DNA of 64,000 nt from Candidatus Spongiisocius sp. (GCA_965203035.1 OZ241858.1:2201437-2265436), one strand, 5' to 3'. Counted from the stretch's first letter, positions 7,583 through 58,869 are shown. The notes: generated from the letters alone by a model not told the origin. Numbers and translations: made by a program.

Positions 7583-8572
7583 GTGAATGCCCTTACCCAC
7601 CTCAAGGGTCCCTCCAGACCCGGTCCGGGCGACCGGAAAGTTCTGCTGGACCGGGCCGGTGAGCTGTTCGCCGGCGCCGAGATCGAGCCGACCGACATCA
7701 TCCGGATCGACGTGCCGGGCCGGGGCCAGTCGGTAGGGGGAGAGGGCCTGCTGAGGCCCGAGCTCGAACCGATCGTGCCCGCCCTGCAGTCGGGATCCCT
7801 GTTCGGCGGGCGTACGGGTGTCATGTTGATGGACGCTCAGCTACTCCAGTCCGATGAGGCTGCCGTCGTGACCGATCTACTCGCTCACCAGGCCGGTGGG
7901 ATCCCGCCGGTGGTGCTGGTCACGAGCGGAAAGCTCCCGTCCCCGCTCGCAGCCCATGTGAAGAGGAACGCCGAGGTGATAACGGTCCGCAAGCTGGCCG
8001 ACCGTGACGTCGCCCTGTGGGTGCGCGACGCCGCCCGCCGGCGCGGGTTACGCCTCGGTTCGGACGCCGCTCAGGCCCTTGTCCAGCGCTTCGGATCCGA
8101 CGTCGGGGCCATCGACCACGCTCTCGACCAACTGAGCATTTCCGGGGGGCCGGTAACCGAACAGGTCATCCTGGACCGCTTCCGCAACCGGCCGGACCAG
8201 CCCCTTTGGAAGCTGACCGACGCCCTCGGGAAGGGGGCCGCAGAGGAAGCCATCCGCCGGCTGCATGATCTCCTCACCCACGGGCACCCCCTCGTTCTTG
8301 TGGCGACCATCGAGAACGACCTCCGGAAAAGGGCGCTGGCCGCGGCCGCGCCGGATATCGCCACGTTCGCGGAGTGGATCGGCGGTAAGCCCGGCGCCTA
8401 CCCGACCCGGAAGGCATGGCAGGCAGGACGGGCCATGTCAAGGGAGGATCTGAACAGGGCCGTAGATGCTGTTCGCAGGGCCGATGCCACGCTGAAAGGT
8501 ATGCCGCCAGAGACCCACCTACCGACCTTGGAGCGCTTGGTGGCCGCCCTCTGCATCTGGTACCGCGGTTAG
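7583..8572 (+). CDS. holA: DNA polymerase III delta subunit
   Basis: Conserved position downstream of comEC. Length and overall similarity fit the HolA family. The stop codon TAG is the first unit of the heptamer array. Confidence 0.7.
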   Translation: MNALTHLKGPSRPGPGDRKVLLDRAGELFAGAEIEPTDIIRIDVPGRGQSVGGEGLLRPELEPIVPALQSGSLFGGRTGVMLMDAQLLQSDEAAVVTDLLAHQAGGIPPVVLVTSGKLPSPLAAHVKRNAEVITVRKLADRDVALWVRDAARRRGLRLGSDAAQALVQRFGSDVGAIDHALDQLSISGGPVTEQVILDRFRNRPDQPLWKLTDALGKGAAEEAIRRLHDLLTHGHPLVLVATIENDLRKRALAAAAPDIATFAEWIGGKPGAYPTRKAWQAGRAMSREDLNRAVDAVRRADATLKGMPPETHLPTLERLVAALCIWYRG

Positions 8573-8639
8573 TTGTTAGTTGTTAGTTGTTAGTTGTTAG
8601 TTGTTAGTTGTTCCGATGTAACTAACGACTACAAACTAG
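8570..8639. repeat. Heptamer hairpin element A: (TAGTTGT)x6 direct array (8570-8611), loop TCCGATGT, then three inverted degenerate copies (AACTAAC GACTACA AACTAG, 8621-8639).
   Basis: Read directly from the sequence. An AT-rich island at the convergent holA/rpsT junction. The stop codons of both genes lie inside the element. Confidence 0.9.
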
Positions 8640-8889
8640 AAACGAGACGGGCCAGGCGCGCCTTCCGGCGGTTGGCGGTGTTCTTCTTGAGCACACCTTT
8701 CGCCACAGCCTGATCGATACGCTTCTGGGCGCTTCGCAAGGCCTGCTCGGTTGCCTCACGGTCACCGCTCTCGGCGGCTTCCTCCACCTGGCGCGCCCGG
8801 GTCTTCAGCTCCGAACGGATCGACCTGTTGCGGACCCTGCTGGCAATGGCCTGCCTGTCGCGCTTTTCCTGGGACTTGGTGTGTGGCAT
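8629..8889 (-). CDS. rpsT: 30S ribosomal protein S20
   Basis: MPHTKSQEKRDRQAIASRVRNRS...KNTANRRKARLARLVSSL, about 86 aa and S20-like. The start is the internal Met at 8889; the ORF-track N-extension is rejected. Confidence 0.9.
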   Translation of the reverse strand: MPHTKSQEKRDRQAIASRVRNRSIRSELKTRARQVEEAAESGDREATEQALRSAQKRIDQAVAKGVLKKNTANRRKARLARLVSSL

Positions 8890-17614: not shown

Positions 17615-19009
17615 TTGGTGCGATTCCGGATCGAGAAGGACTCCATGGGGGAGGTGCAGGTGCCGTCGGATGCCCTGTACGGCGCCTCGACCCGGCGGGC
17701 ACTCGAGAACTTCCCGATATCCGACCGGAGGTTCGGCCGCTCGTTCATCTGGGCGCTCGGCCTGATCAAGGGCTCGGCCGCCCAGATGGCCGGGGCGGCG
17801 GGTCATCTGCCCGGTGAGATCGCCGAGGCGGTTTCCCAGGCGTCCGACGAGGTCATGGCCGGAGACTGGGACGAGCAGTTCGTGCTCGATGTCTTCCAGA
17901 CCGGGTCCGGTACCTCCACCAATACCAACGCCAACGAGGTGATCGCCAACCGGGCAGCCCAGCTGCTCGGAGGGTCGATCGGGGACCGGTCGGTCCACCC
18001 CAACGATCACGTGAACTTCGGCCAGTCCTCGAACGACGTGATCCCCACCGCCATACACCTGGCGGCTGCACGGGCTACCAGAGAGGACCTGGTGCCGGCA
18101 CTGGAGGCGCTGGCGGGGTCACTGGGGGAGCGGGCCGCCGACTTCTCGGGCGTGGTCAAGTCCGGCCGCACTCACCTCATGGACGCCACGCCGGTGACGC
18201 TGGGCCAGGAGTTCTCCTCGTACGCGGCCCAGATCGACAAGGGCGTCGAGCGCCTGGAGGCTGTGTTGCCGGGCCTCGACGAGCTCGCCCTGGGAGGCAC
18301 CGCAGTCGGCACGGGGATCAACGCACCCCCCGGGTTCGCGGCGTCGGTGGTCGGGCTGATGGCCACGAGGACCGGTTACCCGCTCCGCGAGGCCGACAAC
18401 CACTTCGAGGCCCAGGCCGCGAAGGATGCGGTCGTGATGGCTTCGGGCGCCCTGAAGACCGTCGCCGTGTCCCTGTTCAAGATCGCCAACGACCTGCGCT
18501 GGCTCTCGTCCGGACCCCGTACGGGACTGGGGGAGATCAGGCTTCCCGCCCTCCAGCCGGGATCCTCGATCATGCCCGGCAAGGTCAATCCGGTCATTCC
18601 CGAGATGGTCTGCCAGGTTGCCGCGCAGGTGATCGGAAACGACTCGGCCATCGCCTGGGGTGGCGCCAACGGCAATCTGGAACTCAACGTGATGATGCCG
18701 ATGATGGCCCACAACCTCCTGGACTCGATCGGGCTGCTGGCAAGCGCCTCGTCCACGTTCCGGGAGCGTTGTGTCGACGGGATAGAGGCGGATGCGGACC
18801 GGGCTCGCCGGCTGGTGGAGAGCAACCTGATCGTGGTCACCGCCCTCAACCCGAGGATCGGTTACGACAGGGCCGCCGAAGTGGCCAAGGAGGCCTACGC
18901 CTCGGGCCGCACCATCCGTGACGTCGTGCTCGACATGGGCCTGATGGAGCCGGAGGAGTTGGACGAGGTGCTGGACATCAAGCGGATGACCGAAGGCGGG
19001 ATTCTCTAG
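17615..19009 (+). CDS. Aspartate ammonia-lyase / class II fumarate hydratase family lyase. Motifs lean towards AspA.
   Basis: [11 protein letters not shown] signature loop. The VNPVIPE and FVLDVFQ motifs are closer to AspA; [11 protein letters not shown] resembles FumC. Confidence 0.85.
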
Positions 19010-19017
19010 TTTCAACG

Positions 19018-19179
19018 TGGTTGGTCTGTGTTTCGGCGGCGTGCTCTGAACCGCCATCGACGCCTCTGGCTGCGTCCTGCCTCCTCAACGTACCCTGCGG
19101 GTACGCCTTCGTCAGCAAATCCTTGCCATAGACGCCGCTGCCGGCGCCAGACCCCACCGCCGCGCCACAGACCAACCAC
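19018..19179. repeat. 162-bp element bounded by perfect 14-bp inverted repeats (GTGGTTGGTCTGTG ... CACAGACCAACCAC), with several internal short hairpins
   Basis: Read directly from the sequence. Located in the convergent aspA/sufU intergenic region. Confidence 0.6.
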
Positions 19180-19224
19180 GGGACGCGCGATTGCTGACGA
19201 CTGCGCATAACGTGAACACGGCCA

Positions 19225-19273
19225 AGTTGCTAGTTGTTCCATTGGCTAGAAACTATTGACTATCAACTACCAA
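19225..19273. repeat. Heptamer hairpin element B: AGTTGCT AGTTGTT, loop CCATTGG, then four inverted degenerate copies (CTAGAAA CTATTGA CTATCAA CTACCAA).
   Basis: Same architecture and loop context as element A (TAGTTGTTCC...CTAGAAAC). The sufU stop codon is embedded. Confidence 0.8.
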
Positions 19274-19724
19274 CAAAGTTGTTAATGGCCTGTTCCAGGG
19301 TAGTCCAGGGCAGGTTGGCGCACTTGATCCGGACCGGGAACTTACGGACTCCCTGAAGTGCCTCGAGATCACCGAGTACCGCACCGGGCCGGCTCGGATC
19401 GAGCCCGGGGTCTCCGGCGCCGTCGATGCTCATCATCCCCTTGAACCGGCCGGTGACTGTTCGTATCGTCTCGATGCTCCTGCCCTTCACGGCGTCGCCC
19501 ATCATCGAACCCGATGCCTGGGATATCGAACACCCGTGACCGGTGACCCCGATCGCGGTGACGTGGTCCCCCTCGATCAGCAATTCGACCCGGACCTCGT
19601 CACCACACAGCGGATTGTTGCCGTCGGCTACCGCGTTGGCCCGCGCCAGGGCCTTCCGGTTACGGGGGCTCCGGTAGTGGTCGAGGATTACCTCACGGTA
19701 GAGATCTTCAAGCGCCATGAGCAT
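19263..19724 (-). CDS. sufU: SUF-system Fe-S cluster scaffold SufU/IscU-family protein
   Basis: Conserved Cys motifs (NPLCGDEV, GHGCSIS). Confidence 0.85.
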   Translation of the reverse strand: MLMALEDLYREVILDHYRSPRNRKALARANAVADGNNPLCGDEVRVELLIEGDHVTAIGVTGHGCSISQASGSMMGDAVKGRSIETIRTVTGRFKGMMSIDGAGDPGLDPSRPGAVLGDLEALQGVRKFPVRIKCANLPWTTLEQAINNFVGS

Positions 19725-25071: not shown

Positions 25072-25290
25072 GTGGCCACCGGGACATCCTCGCGCCTATC
25101 CAGATTCGAGAAGAGCCGCTTTATCGGCGCCAGGGACACGATGATCGTCTACGACTGCGACGATGCCGGCCAGTTCGCCCGGCTCGAGGCCCGGCTCGGG
25201 GACGACAACCTGCTGGGTCGCAACCTGATCCAGAGCTTCGCCCCCGACACGCTGGCCGAGGCCCGCAACCGGGGATTTCGTAGTTTGTAG
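25072..25290 (+). CDS. Hypothetical small protein (72 aa, GTG start). Its C-terminal RSL* is encoded by the heptamer array.
   Basis: The ORF directly follows the upstream stop. No recognisable motifs. Confidence 0.3.
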   Translation: MATGTSSRLSRFEKSRFIGARDTMIVYDCDDAGQFARLEARLGDDNLLGRNLIQSFAPDTLAEARNRGFRSL

Positions 25291-25359
25291 TTGCTGGTTT
25301 CCAGTTGGTAGTGGCTACCTGTGCCTAACAACTGACAACTCCCAACTAACAACTAAAGA
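25281..25359. repeat. Heptamer hairpin element C: left array TAGTTTG TAGTTGC TGGTTTC CAGTTGG TAGTGGC, loop TACCTGTGC, right inverted array CTAACAA CTGACAA CTCCCAA CTAACAA CTAAAGA.
   Basis: Read directly from the sequence. Stop codons of the convergent ORFs on both strands lie inside the arrays. Confidence 0.85.
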
Positions 25360-32937: not shown

Positions 32938-33007
32938 ACCGCTCCCCGGAGGCCTGATCGACCGGCCTCGTCGCCCTTCTGGGTCAGCTAGCGAAGAGCG
33001 AGGACCC

Positions 33008-33039
33008 AAAAAAAGACCCGGCCCCAAATGGGCCGGGTG
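33008..33039 (-). terminator. Rho-independent terminator on the minus strand: 10-bp GC stem (GACCCGGCCC/GGGCCGGGTC), loop ATTTG, then a T7 tract.
   Basis: The plus strand shows AAAAAAA GACCCGGCCC caaat GGGCCGGGT. No annotated minus-strand gene lies upstream of it. Confidence 0.55.
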
Positions 33040-33510
33040 GGTAACCGCCCTCTAACGCTGGCGCGTCAGGGGCGAAGCGCTGGGATCGAATGTAACACGA
33101 GTCAAGGTCCAGAGACAAGGAGCAGGTTGAGTCACCAGTCTGGGGGACGTCGATACGGTCCTACCGTCTCCGGGAGTTGACATGAGCGGAAATCGTCTTC
33201 CGTGAGCCGGTACCACCAATGGTTGCCGACACCCTCATCCGGATCTCCCTGTAGATCCCCAGCTGTCGGGTTACGGCGCGGGTGCCGGTCGGACGGGAAC
33301 CACGCACGAAATGCTGAATCCGACACTTTCGGAACCGTTCGCACTACGTTTTCGGAATCATTTGCCACTACGTTTCCGGAGTCTGCCCTCTCCGGCAAGG
33401 CAACTGTGGACCGTGGCCGGACATGTCTGGAGGTGCGCTGTTCCGGATCTCCTGCGACCGTGCGAAGATAGGTCCGCGTTGAACGGTCCAGCCAACCCAG
33501 GTGTGGAGAT

Positions 33511-38186: not shown

Positions 38187-38503
38187 GCAGCCAGGATGCC
38201 GATCCCCGGGAGTTCCTGTTCGACTTCGTGCTGTACCTCGTTACCTGCGCGCGGCTCCACCTCGATGAGAAGCCCATCTACGGGGCGTTCCGGATGATCG
38301 AGGGCGCCAGCCGTCTCATCGAGGCGGCAGAGGATCTGCCCGGCTGGGAGGTGGACGGGTTCCTGGCCGAGCAGCGGGCGGCGATCGAGGCCAACAAGGC
38401 TCGGATGACGGTCGACAAGGACGGCTTCCGCGACTGGCTGAGCGACCTGGCCAGAGACCTGGCCGCCGAAGCCACCAGGAGAAACCTCGATCCGGCGGGG
38501 TGA
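38183..38503 (+). CDS. Hypothetical protein (106 aa), translationally coupled to the nitroreductase (ATGA)
   Basis: An ORF with no recognisable motifs. Confidence 0.35.
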   Translation: MSSQDADPREFLFDFVLYLVTCARLHLDEKPIYGAFRMIEGASRLIEAAEDLPGWEVDGFLAEQRAAIEANKARMTVDKDGFRDWLSDLARDLAAEATRRNLDPAG

Positions 38504-38577
38504 GCAGGGGAACGGAGCCCCTCTCTCGCGCATTAATCGATGGACCGGGGCGATCGCGCCCCTATAGTTCTGTATCC

Positions 38578-39432
38578 ATGCGGATCCGAATCAGCGTGGT
38601 AGCGGTTCTGGCTACCCTCGTTCTCCCTGTTCCCGGCGCCGTCGCCCAGGCCGGAGACGACGCCGCGCGCCAAACCGCATCACTGCGCAGCTCGCTCGAG
38701 CCCGGCGACGTCCTCCTGCGCGGTCAATCGCTCCGATCCCCGGACGGCGCCCACCGACTGGCGTTCCTGCCGGACGGCAACCTGGTCCTGTATCGAGGCG
38801 CCGAAGAGGTCTGGTCCTCGGGAACGAGCCGCCAGGCAGGCAACCGCCTTCTCATGCAGCACGACGGTGACCTCGTCATGTACCTGGCGCTTCAGTTCGG
38901 AACCGTGCCGGTCTGGCGTTCCGGTACCGGCGGCTTCGATGGCGCTGAGCTGAGACTGCCCGAGGATGGGGGAGCGACCATCCGCCGCCACGATGCGCAG
39001 CTTCTCTGGTCGGCCGGGTTGACGGCGCCCGATGTGGGTCTTGCCGGCCGTCAGCACGCCGTCTATGACCGGCGCGGCGAGAAGATGATGGCCTGGCTGG
39101 TCGAAGCCGACGGGACGCTGACGGACACCTACCCCGTGAGCGGCATGTTCCGGAACCCGCCCGCCGGTCACTACGAGATCTACTCGAAGTCCGAGGTGGC
39201 CTACGGTTTCCGAGGGGGCAGCATGAAACACATGGTCCGCTTCGCCTGGGGAGCGAGCGGTTGGCGGATAGGCTTCCATTCGATCGGTGTGGACGCGAGC
39301 GGAGCACCGAACCAGACGCTCGACCAACTCGGCCAGGGGTTGTCGGCAGGTTGTGTTCGGCAGCGTGACGACAAGGCGGCGTTCCTGTACGACTGGGCGC
39401 CGATCGGCATGCCGGTTGTGGTGCTGGGCTGA
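38578..39432 (+). CDS. Secreted bulb-type (B_lectin) mannose-binding lectin domain fused to an L,D-transpeptidase (YkuD) catalytic domain
   Basis: Signal peptide. QSLRSPDGAHRLAFLPDGNLVLY and LMQHDGDLVMY lectin repeats. H...SAGCVRQ catalytic motif. Confidence 0.7.
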   Translation: MRIRISVVAVLATLVLPVPGAVAQAGDDAARQTASLRSSLEPGDVLLRGQSLRSPDGAHRLAFLPDGNLVLYRGAEEVWSSGTSRQAGNRLLMQHDGDLVMYLALQFGTVPVWRSGTGGFDGAELRLPEDGGATIRRHDAQLLWSAGLTAPDVGLAGRQHAVYDRRGEKMMAWLVEADGTLTDTYPVSGMFRNPPAGHYEIYSKSEVAYGFRGGSMKHMVRFAWGASGWRIGFHSIGVDASGAPNQTLDQLGQGLSAGCVRQRDDKAAFLYDWAPIGMPVVVLG

Positions 39433-39531
39433 CACCCTCGCTCCATGAAGGGCACCTGAAGCACGACCACGACCTGGTTGGCGCCTGGGTGAGGTTCCGG
39501 GGTTCCGGCACGGGCGACTCTCTTCGGTAAC

Positions 39532-47456: not shown

Positions 47457-47610
47457 CAGTGGCCAGTGGCCGGTTGCCAGTGGCCAGAGGCGACTTGGTC
47501 TAATCAATTCCCTTGTGCCCTTTCCTCTGTTCGATGGCATGTGTCATTCCCTTCCTGGGTTACAACATCACTGACCACTGACCACTGACCACTGACCACT
47601 GACCACTGCC
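47457..47610. repeat. Heptamer element D: left array (CAGTGGC)x5 with two degenerate units (47457-47491), a 77-nt AT-richer spacer, and right inverted array (CACTGAC)x5 plus CACTGCC (47569-47610). It ends 16 nt before the polA ATG.
   Basis: Read directly from the sequence. The reverse complement of the right array is (CAGTGGT)n, so the two arrays are mutually inverted. Confidence 0.9.
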
Positions 47611-47626
47611 ACGCTACGATCATCGC

Positions 47627-55967: not shown

Positions 55968-58808
55968 GTGTCGAACCGCCCGAGCTTCATGACCAGAGAC
56001 CAGCTCATCGTTCGCGGAGCACGCGAGCACAACCTCCAGGACATCTCCGTCGAGCTTCCCCGCGAGAGGTTCATCGTCTTCACCGGCCTGTCCGGATCGG
56101 GGAAGTCCAGCCTGGCGTTCGACACCATCTACGCGGAGGGCCAGCGCCGCTACGTGGAGAGCCTGTCCGCTTACGCCCGCCAGTTCCTGGGTCAGATGGA
56201 CAAGCCCGATGTGGACTTCATCGAGGGCCTGTCACCCGCCATCTCGATCGACCAGAAGACCGCCAGCCGGAATCCCCGTTCCACGGTCGGCACCGTCACC
56301 GAGATCCATGACTACCTCCGCCTCCTCTACGCCCGCATCGGGAAGCCCCACTGTCCCCGCTGCGGGAAGGTGGTGGCGCGCCAGACTCCCCAGCAGATCG
56401 TTGACCGGATAGCCGAGCTCGAGGAGGGCACTCGCTTCCAGGTACTGGCGCCCATCGTCCGCGGACGTAAGGGGGAGTACGAGGAGCTGTTCCGGGACCT
56501 GTCCCGCCAGGGTTTCAGCCGGGCCCGGGTGGACGGTGAGATCATGGACCTGGCCGAGTCCATCCGTCTCGACCGCTATTACACCCACACCATCGAGGTG
56601 GTGGTCGACCGGCTGGTGGCGGGCCGGGGCGATATCCGGCGCCTCACCGACTCCCTGGAAACCGCCTTGGGCCTGACCGGTGGCACCGCGGTGGTCGACG
56701 TCATCGACGGGTCTGAGCTGACCTTCAGCCAGCACCTCTCCTGCGACAGCTGCGGCATCTCGTTCGACCAGCTGGAGCCCCGGTCGTTCTCCTTCAACAG
56801 CCCCTACGGCGCCTGCGAGGCCTGCTCCGGCATCGGCACCAGGTTCGAGGTGGATCCCCGCCTGGTCGTACCGGATGACGAGCTCTCCATCGCGGATGGC
56901 GCGCTCGCCCCATGGGCTACGAACAGCAACCGCTACTACCAGCATCTCCTCAACGGCCTGGCCCGGACGCTGGGCTTCGACGTAGACGCCCGGTTCTGCG
57001 ACCTGGACATCGAGCACCAGCAGGCGGTGCTGCACGGCACCGGAGACCTCCGGGTCCAGGTGTCATTCACCAACCGGTTCGGCCGGCGACGGCGCTACCG
57101 GGCCAAATACGAAGGGGTGATCCCGGTGTTGCGCCGCCGCCACGAGCAGACCGAGTCGGATCGAGCCCGGTCGTTGTACGAGGAGTACATGCGCCAGGTG
57201 CCCTGCCCGACCTGCTCCGGCGCCCGCCTCAACCCGGTGTCGCTGGCCGTCACCGTGGGGGGGCTGAACATCTTCGAGGTCTGCGACCGGTCCATCCGGG
57301 GCACGCTCGAAGCTCTCGACCGGCTCGAGCTCGGGGAACGGGATGCGACCATCGCCGGTCCGGTGCTGAAGGAGATCCACGAGCGCCTCCGTTTCCTCCT
57401 CGATGTGGGCCTCGAGTACCTGACCCTCTACCGCGGCGCCGCCACCCTTTCGGGAGGCGAGGCGCAGCGCATCCGCCTCGCAACGCAGATCGGCTCGGGA
57501 CTGGTGGGCGTTCTATACGTGCTCGACGAGCCGTCCATCGGCCTTCACCAGCGGGACAACCGGCGGCTGCTGGAGACTCTGCTCCGGCTCCGTGATCTCG
57601 GTAACACCCTGATCGTGGTCGAGCACGACGAAGAGACCATTCGGACCGCCGATCACGTGGTCGACCTGGGCCCGGGAGCGGGTGAGCGGGGCGGGCACGT
57701 GGTGGCTGAAGGGGACCTGACGGACCTTCTGGCCGAGCCGGAATCGCTGACGGGCGCCTATCTGGCAGGGCGCCGGCACATCCCCACACCCGGGCGGCGT
57801 CGCAACGGAGACGGCCGGTCGCTCAAGGTGATCGGAGCCGCCGAGAACAACCTGCGCAACCTCGACGTGGAACTCCCTCTGGGGAAGCTGATCGCCGTCA
57901 CGGGGGTGTCCGGGAGCGGCAAGTCCTCCCTGGTGCAGGAAATCCTGTCGAAAGGCCTGCACAGCCGGCTGTATCGCTCGCGGGCCGTTCCCGGACGGCA
58001 TCGCCGCATCGTCGGGGTCGAATACCTCGACAAGGTGATAAACATCGACCAGTCGCCCATCGGCCGCACCCCGCGCTCGAACGCCGCCACATACACGAAG
58101 GTGTTCGACCGGATCCGCAAGCTGTTCTCCTCCACGCCGGAGGCCCGGGCCCGCGGCTACCTGCCGGGGCGCTTCTCCTTCAATGTCAAGGGCGGTCGGT
58201 GCGAGGCCTGCCGGGGCGATGGCAACATCAGGATCGAGATGCACTTCCTGCCGGACGTCTACGTGACCTGCGAGGTCTGCGAGGGCCGGCGCTACAACCG
58301 GGACACCTTGCAGGTGCTGTGGAAGGGCCGGTCGATCGCCGACGTCCTCAACATGCCGGCCGAGGAGGCACTCTCGTTCTTCGAAGCGCAGCCCCCGATC
58401 GCCCGGATCGTCCAGACCATCTGCGATGTCGGCCTCGGTTACATCCGTCTGGGCCAGCCGGCCCCGACCCTTTCCGGCGGGGAGGCCCAGCGGGTGAAGC
58501 TGGCATCCGAGCTGGGCAAGCGCGCCACGGGCAATACCTTCTACATCCTCGACGAGCCCACCACCGGACTCCACTTCGAGGACACCCGCAAGCTCCTTGA
58601 GGTACTCCACCGCCTCGTGGACACCGGCAACACGGTGGTGGTGATCGAACACAACCTGGACGTGGTGCGCTCTGCCGACTGGATCATCGACCTCGGCCCG
58701 GAAGGCGGAGATGAGGGCGGGCGGATCGTCGCCTCGGGCACCCCCGAGCAGGTGGCCGCCGTGCCCGAGTCCTATACCGGCAAGTTCCTCCGCGACGTAC
58801 TCCCGTAA
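55968..58808 (+). CDS. uvrA: Excinuclease ABC subunit A
   Basis: Two ABC modules ([24 protein letters not shown]) and zinc-finger Cys clusters. Confidence 0.95.
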
Positions 58809-58841: not shown

Positions 58842-58869
58842 AACTTAGTCTATGAACTTAGTCTATAGT
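58842..58869 (+). promoter_or_regulatory. Two 12-bp direct repeats (AACTTAGTCTAT, spacer of 1 nt) overlapping a TATAGT -10-like hexamer upstream of the TA operon. Candidate autoregulatory operator.
   Basis: Read directly from the sequence. A GAGGAG SD lies 8 nt before the ATG at 58895. Confidence 0.4.

Follow-up and report, generated by a model that had tools for sequence, protein, structure and literature searches.

Genes and features at the sufU/aspA junction

The window, a 64,000-nt stretch of DNA from Candidatus Spongiisocius sp. (GCA_965203035.1 OZ241858.1:2201437-2265436), contains an AT-rich repeat, element B (19225–19273), at the junction of two convergent genes. On the minus strand, sufU (19263–19724) is the last gene of a sufC–sufS–sufU run, and its product matches the SufU equivalog TIGR01994 at 147 bits (cut-off 92.5). 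The facing gene on the plus strand, called ‘aspA’ here (17615–19009), encodes a member of the aspartate ammonia-lyase/fumarase family and scores 575 bits against the NF008909 subfamily (cut-off 510). Gene context was taken from an open reading frame (ORF) listing, NCBIfam and the called genes of syntenic loci. A GC3-based gene caller gave several miscalls, for example on the antisense strand of sufS, and served for a rough junction list only.

Element B lies in the 253-nt sufU/aspA spacer and overlaps coding sequence only in the last 3–4 codons of sufU. The sufU stop codon (TGA, 19263–19265, minus strand) falls inside the first full unit, TAGTTGA. The original prediction placed the closing F-V-G-S codons and the stop within the repeat; the stop and the S, G and V codons are indeed found there, with the F codon (19275–19277) just outside, beyond 19273. 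GC content is 0.44 per 100 nt around the element and 0.28 in its lowest 40-nt segment, compared with 0.67 (66.8%) for the whole window. The region 19225–19290 is one of the three lowest-GC islands of the window, the other two being elements A and C described below.

Between element B and the aspA stop codon lies a GC-rich, near-perfect palindrome of 165 nt (19016–19180, with a flank at 19181–19224), whose terminal 15-mers (CGTGGTTGGTCTGTG) are exact inverted copies of each other. A 226-nt stretch that includes it folds at −116.8 kcal/mol (z −5.55), and no further copies were found in the window or the fetched loci. The palindrome is a separate element from B and the likelier terminator for both genes, probably the actual bidirectional one; alternatively, it may be a separate palindromic insertion.

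Element B is composed of degenerate heptamers

The plus strand of element B reads AGTTGCT AGTTGTT CCATTGG CTAGAAA CTATTGA CTATCAA CTACCAA, exactly as predicted: two units, a CCATTGG loop and four inverted degenerate units. On the sense strand of sufU (minus), the coding tail and element read ...AAC AAC TTT GTT GGT AGT TGA / TAGTCAA TAGTTTC TAGCCAA TGG AACAACT AGCAACT TGG. Four TAG-led heptamers are thus followed by a short spacer and two inverted heptamers. TAG occurs four times with a period of 7 on this strand (offsets 31, 38, 45 and 52), and the lag-7 autocorrelation peaks at 0.57 over 19225–19273 and at 0.49 over 19225–19290. The lag-7 value of the element was matched by 1 of 20,000 shuffles (p = 5e-5). 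Autocorrelation and TAG spacing together identify a head-to-tail 7-nt repetition. Tandem Repeats Finder reported elements A and C and did not report element B, which is degenerate.

The sufU-side arm (19246–19273, minus strand) contains four units, (TTGG)TAGTTGA TAGTCAA TAGTTTC TAG(CCAA) in the sufU sense, which have orthologues in L002, L213, L211, L129, L001 and L212. It is joined through the CCATTGG spacer (19239–19245) to the aspA-side arm (19225–19238, plus strand), composed of the two units AGTTGCT AGTTGTT (AACAACT AGCAACT in the sufU sense). In the window, this second arm is now separated from the aspA stop codon by the GC-rich insert; in the insert-free lineages L001, L126 and L212, the aspA stop codon lies within the last unit of the arm. 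On the sufU side, unit-like sequence runs on into the coding region to about 19288. A small unit-like palindrome at 19274–19288 (AACAACTTTGTTG), within the codons for N-N-F-V, forms a 7-bp local stem in the minus-strand fold.

Relation to elements A and C

The TAGTTGN/NCAACTA unit is common to elements A, B and C. Element A (8568–8643) contains six perfect TAGTTGT units and three degenerate inverted units, and the TAG stop codons of both holA and rpsT are located inside it. Element C (25280–25357) forms the best hairpin among the heptamer elements of the window. Its left arm contains the stop codon of a conserved 72-aa ORF, and it lies ∼200 nt upstream of lpdA, as estimated from ORF length. 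Searches of the window for AGTTGCTAGTTGTTCC with up to 3 mismatches gave 6 matches (0.07 expected), all in A or B; searches for AGTTGTTAGTTG with up to 2 mismatches gave 14 (0.42 expected), all in A, B or C.

The polarity of the units is also shared. In A and B, the TAGTTG units are read first by each of the two convergent genes, and in C they are read first by the 72-aa ORF. A single-arm array after a beta-propeller gene in L001 and L003 likewise reads TAGTTG first. An alignment of the three elements, suggested with the original prediction, recovers this common unit and nothing alignable beyond it. The claim that the loop contexts of A and B are nearly identical was an overstatement: the likeness consists of a shared TAGTTGTTCC and a shared CTAGAAAC, with a spacing of 21 nt in A and 5 nt in B. 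Element C is present at the orthologous site in L001–L004, L129 and L211, where the number of units varies widely, and is absent in L126.

A second pair of heptamer arrays, with a different unit from TAGTTGN, is present elsewhere in the window. A (CAGTGGC)5 array directly follows tRNA-Leu(caa) at 47457–47491, and 77 nt away an inverted (CCACTGA)6 array (47569–47612) ends ∼15 nt before the polA start codon. With its G-rich array following a 3′ end and its C-rich array preceding a start codon, this pair has the polarity of the TAGTTGN elements. The CCACTGA unit resembles the TAACTGA repeats of Beggiatoaceae.

Hairpin strength

Only the two left units of element B pair, with the two outermost right units, over 11 nt at 91% complementarity (one mismatch), and 27 nt separate the paired arms. 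The predicted folds are −20.5 kcal/mol for the plus strand (z −1.95 relative to shuffles) and −20.7 kcal/mol for the minus strand (z −1.67). The proposal that B has the same heptamer hairpin architecture as its neighbors stands for the unit and the arm polarity shared with A and C; as a hairpin, B is marginal, with a stem formed by just two unit pairs. Element A gives z-scores of −2.0 and −1.4, and element C folds clearly better than B (−3.37 and −2.1). Among orthologues of B, the one in L212 folds strongly (z −4.5 and −6.8), and those in L129, L213 and L211 have close to no fold (z 0.15 to −0.5).

Covariation gives no support for the stem: across five alignable orthologues, a sample without power for this test, 0 of 14 pairs changed on both sides, a result no better than that from shuffles. 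One additional position has U-A in L002, C-G in L213 and a mismatch (C/A) in the window; as a compensatory change it would be suggestive only. At gathering scores, Rfam reported two tRNAs in the whole window and no family at element B. A consensus promoter and terminator scan of 18800–19500 gave no terminator-like or promoter-like site. The stem of B is AT-rich and is not followed by a T run, so the combination of GC-rich stem and U-tract is absent; ordinary GC-rich stems are seen at other junctions of the window.

We observed one heptamer hairpin elsewhere that ends differently. In L058, a Saprospiraceae MAG (metagenome-assembled genome), a (TAGTTGT)3 ... (AACAACT)3 hairpin at ∼1745–1835 is directly followed by seven T residues, and from its sequence it looks like a canonical intrinsic terminator.

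The junction in related lineages

SufU homologues at 89–91% identity come from Acidimicrobiia MAGs, one of them assigned to Candidatus Spongiisocius sp.; this genus belongs to the order Candidatus Spongiisociales of the Actinomycetota. Gene order around sufU is conserved among these relatives. We read the sufU/aspA junction in eleven lineages and constructed a neighbor-joining tree from sufS+sufU DNA. The junction carries the element in nine of ten clade lineages (among them the window, L213, L211, L002, L129, L126, L212 and L001). These orthologous copies at the same junction of nine related lineages, together with a core that has no paralogue in the window or the fetched loci, bear out the earlier suggestion of an evolving family as opposed to a recent duplication.

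Unit number and sequence vary at this fixed locus. In clade I (the window, L213, L211 and L002), all elements have 4+2 units like B and differ by point changes only, and the spacer contains a GC-rich insert of ∼215 nt. The sister lineage L129 also has 4+2 units, with a shortened insert. In clade II, L126 has 4+4 units of different composition, L001 has 4+3, and L212 has 5+4 (TAGTCGA TAGTTTC TAGTCGA TAGTTGC TCGTTTC / AACAACT AACAACT AGCAACT AACAACT). In these three lineages, the element fills the entire 39–68-nt spacer and both stop codons lie inside its arms. The GC-rich palindrome is present in the four clade I lineages, shortened in the middle in L129, and absent from L001, L126 and L212. 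No heptamers are found in the outgroups L128 and L130 (∼74% DNA identity).

The element is absent from L003 (also L004 and L005) of clade II. L003 and L001 are 98% identical in sufS+sufU, yet the whole heptamer hairpin is cleanly gone in L003 (10440–10470 in L003, L004 and L005 compared with 10440–10510 in L001). There, sufU and aspA overlap by CTAG, a palindrome that supplies TAG on one strand and CTA on the other. Because the deletion is clean and leaves the genes overlapping by these four nucleotides, neither sufU nor aspA needs the element. The simplest history consistent with the tree would be a single gain in the clade ancestor, remodelling in place and one recent clean deletion in L003.

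Over 53 compared positions, B differs from its clade I orthologues at 2, 5 and 6 and from L129 at 11. The third-codon-position divergence of sufS for the same pairs is 3.6, 6.1, 5.8 and 23%. The divergence of B is thus close to that of third positions, which amounts to roughly neutral drift with an unchanged copy number. With a third-position difference of 6.8%, L001 and L212 nevertheless carry elements of different composition that are several whole units apart (4+3 and 5+4). Such turnover is the behavior of simple-sequence repeats: an array is unstable while pure and frozen once degenerate. The arms of an element also evolve independently, as separately homogenized arrays and not as a co-evolving palindrome. 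In L212, one arm alternates TAGTCGA and TAGTTTC, whereas the other is a nearly pure AACAACT array.

The C-terminus of SufU follows the repeat, a point raised for checking with the original prediction. The conserved domain always ends in ...TTLE(E/Q)A(I/L), and the last 2–3 residues and the stop codon change with the unit sequence. Tails encoded with the element are FVGS*, FVDS*, FFDS*, FVDSD*, FISSQ* and FVSSR*; those without it are FVSTD*, NYQPEE* and QFEGV*.

A metagenome scan with SufU returned only distant Acidimicrobiia (≤67% identity), and ∼495 kb of their sequence contained only two heptamer arrays, homologous to each other, so that this set is useful solely as negative background. The heptamer trait is thus lineage-specific within the Acidimicrobiia. 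Runs of N that mark assembly gaps adjoin heptamer arrays or the GC-rich palindrome in L211 (∼4010 and ∼10225) and L055, and copy numbers in such metagenome assemblies should be treated with care.

TAGTTGN arrays in other phyla

A scan for three tandem TAGTTGN units (TAGTTGNTAGTTGNTAGTTG), with one genome per species, gave at least 120 loci (L006–L125). About half are from filamentous cyanobacteria (Stigonema, Calothrix, Rivularia, Microcoleus and Prochloron), and the remaining matches listed include Acidobacteriota, Planctomycetota, Bacteroidota and one other actinomycetote. Viral contigs contain another 103 stretches with TAGTTGN arrays. Element B therefore shares its TAGTTGN unit with cyanobacterial arrays. 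The idea of a distinctive new hairpin family did not survive this comparison: the unit is an ordinary heptanucleotide tandem repeat of many phyla, and the hairpin of B is weak and lacks covariation support.

The neighbors of 100 interior arrays among the matches listed were analysed for ORFs within 40 nt. A long ORF on the TAGTTG-reading strand ends at the 5′ edge of the array in 48 of the 100 listed, and an ORF on the opposite strand starts there in 19. At the 3′ edge, an ORF starts in 6 and ends in 6 of the same 100. Among the matches listed, the most common ORF-end distance is −3 (17 cases), at which the ORF terminates on the opening TAG of the array; ∼30 of 57 ORF ends are on the first unit or at most 5 nt before it, and stops show an excess at the first unit (17–20 cases, compared with 5 in the second and 3 in the third). 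Where an inverted CAACT array accompanies a TAGTTG array among these matches, it is downstream in 14 cases and upstream in none. Neither the anchoring on stop codons nor the fixed polarity is described in the heptamer-repeat literature examined.

A Thermoguttaceae MAG (L080) contains two copies of a dispersed element ∼1.2 kb apart (100–420 and 1270–1590), in which TAGTTGC/CAACTAG heptamer arms flank a GC-rich core. Heptamer arms may be carried by, or may attract, other small elements. Element B and one L080 copy have 16 nt in common (CTAGAAACTATTGACT). We considered horizontal transfer and rejected it because the 16 nt occur in only one of the two L080 copies and are best explained by shared unit variants.

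Relation to known repeats

Among the long simple-sequence repeats of many bacteria, those with a heptanucleotide unit are the most over-represented, with slippage proposed as their origin and Actinobacteria among the repeat-rich genomes, according to Mrazek et al. (2007) as cited in PMC4679880 and PMC4692102. Element B resembles these repeats, as characterized in those two papers, in its unit length of 7, intergenic bias, turnover at a fixed locus and proposed slippage. By purity it is too degenerate for the class, and its inverted layout and stop anchoring are outside the description of that work given there.

The STRR sequences (short, tandemly repeated and repetitive) of cyanobacteria are 7-bp repeats able to form hairpins, for example at hupS-hupL; suggested roles are transcript stability and translational coupling, and their function is unknown (PMC2670836). 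Like them, B has tandem 7-bp units, is intergenic and can form a hairpin when the units are inverted (PMC2670836; Mazel et al. 1990 as cited in PMC4692102). The likeness is one of description, and TAGTTGN itself is abundant in cyanobacteria such as Stigonema, Calothrix, Rivularia, Microcoleus and Prochloron. Differences are the 67% GC acidimicrobial host, the short and degenerate arrays (2–6 units) and the fact that arrays of the Spongiisocius clade are nearly always inverted pairs on stop codons. The heptamer repeats of Nostoc have no established function (bioRxiv 10.1101/2022.06.06.494920).

TAACTGA repeats occur in marine Beggiatoaceae, cyanobacteria and Bacteroidetes, and forward copies stop all three frames, so they overlap ORF ends only (PMC4679880). 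They are a related heptamer (compare CAACTGA, CAACTAA and CCACTGA here), and they share with B the three-frame stops in one orientation, a scattered distribution across phyla and an orientation bias relative to neighboring genes (PMC4679880). They are mostly direct and located just upstream of start codons, with one inverted set only (PMC4679880), whereas B and its relatives are inverted pairs on stop codons. The GGGAATC repeats of Xanthomonas differ between relatives in length and sequence but keep the same flanking genes, and they sometimes form inverted pairs between convergent genes (PMC4692102). B is similar to some of the GGGAATC and GGGGA(T/C)T repeats of Xanthomonas and Nostoc in this last respect; those repeats are under-represented between divergent genes and have no established function (PMC4692102). 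Their units are G-rich and form quadruplexes, whereas TAGTTGN cannot form a G-quadruplex.

Element B also has features in common with REP/BIME/REPIN sequences and intrinsic terminators, which are imperfect palindromes at gene 3′ ends and convergent junctions. Unlike the former, it has no near-identical dispersed copies in the window or fetched loci, and REP elements have no internal 7-nt periodicity. Unlike the latter, it does not combine a GC-rich stem with a U-tract.

Origin and possible function

We think it rather probable that element B is an old, vertically inherited inverted pair of heptanucleotide tandem arrays (TAGTTGN) of the STRR type, generated by slippage and tolerated at ORF ends. 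Its periodicity, its orthology with unit turnover in related lineages and its neutral drift are direct observations. Its origin is what we infer from two of these comparisons: 7-nt indels between orthologues and perfect runs in one arm only suggest that replication slippage makes and remodels the arrays, and template switching would add the inverted arm. One array would start at the end of sufU, and the other would originally have been at the end of the convergent aspA-like gene. Because every unit carries TAG, three units stop all three frames. With all frames closed, an array can abut or overlap the end of an ORF harmlessly and supply its stop codon and final two or three residues. Where two arrays face two convergent genes, the AGTTG...CAACT arm order follows automatically, and a hairpin becomes possible in either transcript.

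In the lineage of the window, later insertion of the 165-nt GC-rich palindrome would have split the aspA-side arm from the aspA stop codon, and B appears to have decayed since. It would now be worn to 4+2 impure units of fixed copy number, drifting near-neutrally and folding weakly. On this comparative evidence, B probably has next to no function, acting at most as a weak bidirectional attenuator or weak terminator and a fail-safe stop.

Several observations sit less easily with neutrality. The inverted arm is not always due to converging genes, since C (z −3.4) adjoins one gene end only, and a good hairpin beside a single gene end hints that the hairpin as such is under selection. The L212 orthologue, a very good hairpin (z −4.5 and −6.8), counts against the neutral reading. 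The element has been kept at the junction over ∼20% synonymous-site divergence, and a purely neutral repeat might not survive so long. Slippage alone also leaves the occurrence of TAGTTGN in unrelated phyla and the exact starts on stop codons unexplained.

These points bear on the proposal that heptamer hairpins are selected as factor-independent bidirectional terminators or 3′-end stabilizers that dispense with a U-tract, B being a weak member that would end both the suf operon and the aspA transcripts. All four loci of the clade (A, B, C, and D in L001/L003) are located at gene 3′ ends that are likely ends of transcription units, and nine of ten clade lineages retain the element at the junction. 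C and the L212 orthologue fold far better than shuffles, C has a second arm with no second gene end to account for it, and the L058 hairpin runs into its seven T residues. The U-A, C/A and C-G states in L002, the window and L213 and the transcript stabilization proposed for STRR hairpins (PMC2670836) are consistent with this role as well. We nevertheless consider it unlikely. The fold of B is weak (z between −1.7 and −2.0), with values near 0 in L213, L211 and L129; no tested pair changed on both sides; drift matches the third-codon-position rate; and L003 lost the element outright, leaving genes that simply overlap. The consensus terminator scan was empty, other junctions in the window have GC-rich stems, and next to B there is the 165-nt GC-rich palindrome. 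A more doubtful reading treats TAGTTGN arrays as a cross-phylum polar signal anchored on stop codons and read by conserved machinery, in place of neutral products of slippage. On the sense strand, UAGUUGN would begin on the upstream gene's stop codon and CAACUAN would precede start codons; the readers could be RNA polymerase as it pauses or terminates, release factors or ribosomes acting at the stop, or an RNA-binding protein. The hairpins of the Spongiisocius clade, including B, would then be the form that this signal takes where two genes converge.

Slightly less credible again is the suggestion that the arrays are multivalent sites for a sequence-specific protein, binding RNA or DNA, that recognizes (U)AGUUG after stops and CAACUA before starts, with the hairpin incidental. 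We identified no candidate protein, one genome holds different heptamers side by side, and B decays neutrally. The TAG/AGTTG core is conserved and variation falls on the final one or two bases of a unit, and binders have been proposed for the TAACTGA and Nostoc heptamers (PMC4679880; bioRxiv 10.1101/2022.06.06.494920). Polarity across phyla is strict among the matches listed (48 versus 6 at 3′ ends, 19 versus 6 at 5′ ends and 14 versus 0 for arm order), and the (CAGTGGC)5 and (CCACTGA)6 arrays at tRNA-Leu and polA share it; stop codons within the units, however, also explain the 3′-end polarity. The last reading, that B is a miniature mobile element of the MITE, REP or REPIN type inserting at gene ends, is very improbable. 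B is palindromic, intergenic and AT-rich in a GC-rich genome, and TAGTTGN arrays occur in viral contigs too, but a search with its 30-nt core, allowing up to 3 mismatches, finds nothing but the core itself in the 64-kb window and nothing but orthologous sites in 316 fetched loci, and we rejected a MITE on the strength of this single-copy core. A, B and C are unalignable outside the unit, and no target-site duplication flanks B. The presence of the element in L001 and its absence from L003 could be taken for insertion, but the tree makes the L003 state a derived deletion and not an empty target site.

Element B, under the preferred reading of tolerated slippage-derived arrays, belongs to the TAGTTGN heptamer repeats of the known cyanobacterial kind, newly seen here in sponge-associated Acidimicrobiia, which join the lineages that carry such repeats. 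For genome annotation, these repeats account for AT-rich islands at gene ends, variable last residues (SufU, S20 and others) and assembly gaps beside arrays. The sufU/aspA locus provides a dated series of gain, unit turnover, decay and clean deletion at one site. The interest of B itself is modest compared with the cross-phylum stop anchoring and polarity of TAGTTGN. If these are functional and not mere tolerance, the role of bacterial heptamer repeats would be open to simple reporter tests.

Additional features of the window

Three other regions of the window were noted. The crude GC3-based caller found no gene over ∼1.3 kb at 38187–39492. A 534-nt gap at 32938–33471 contains 2.3 copies of a 24-nt tandem repeat (TTTCGGAACCATTCGCCACTACGT) at 33327–33380, and the long intergenic region around this repeat folds strongly (−220 kcal/mol over 551 nt). 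At 58842–58866, an exact 13-nt direct repeat (AACTTAGTCTATG) is present twice in AT-rich sequence downstream of a long ORF that ends at 58808; from its sequence and position, it could be an operator or promoter element.
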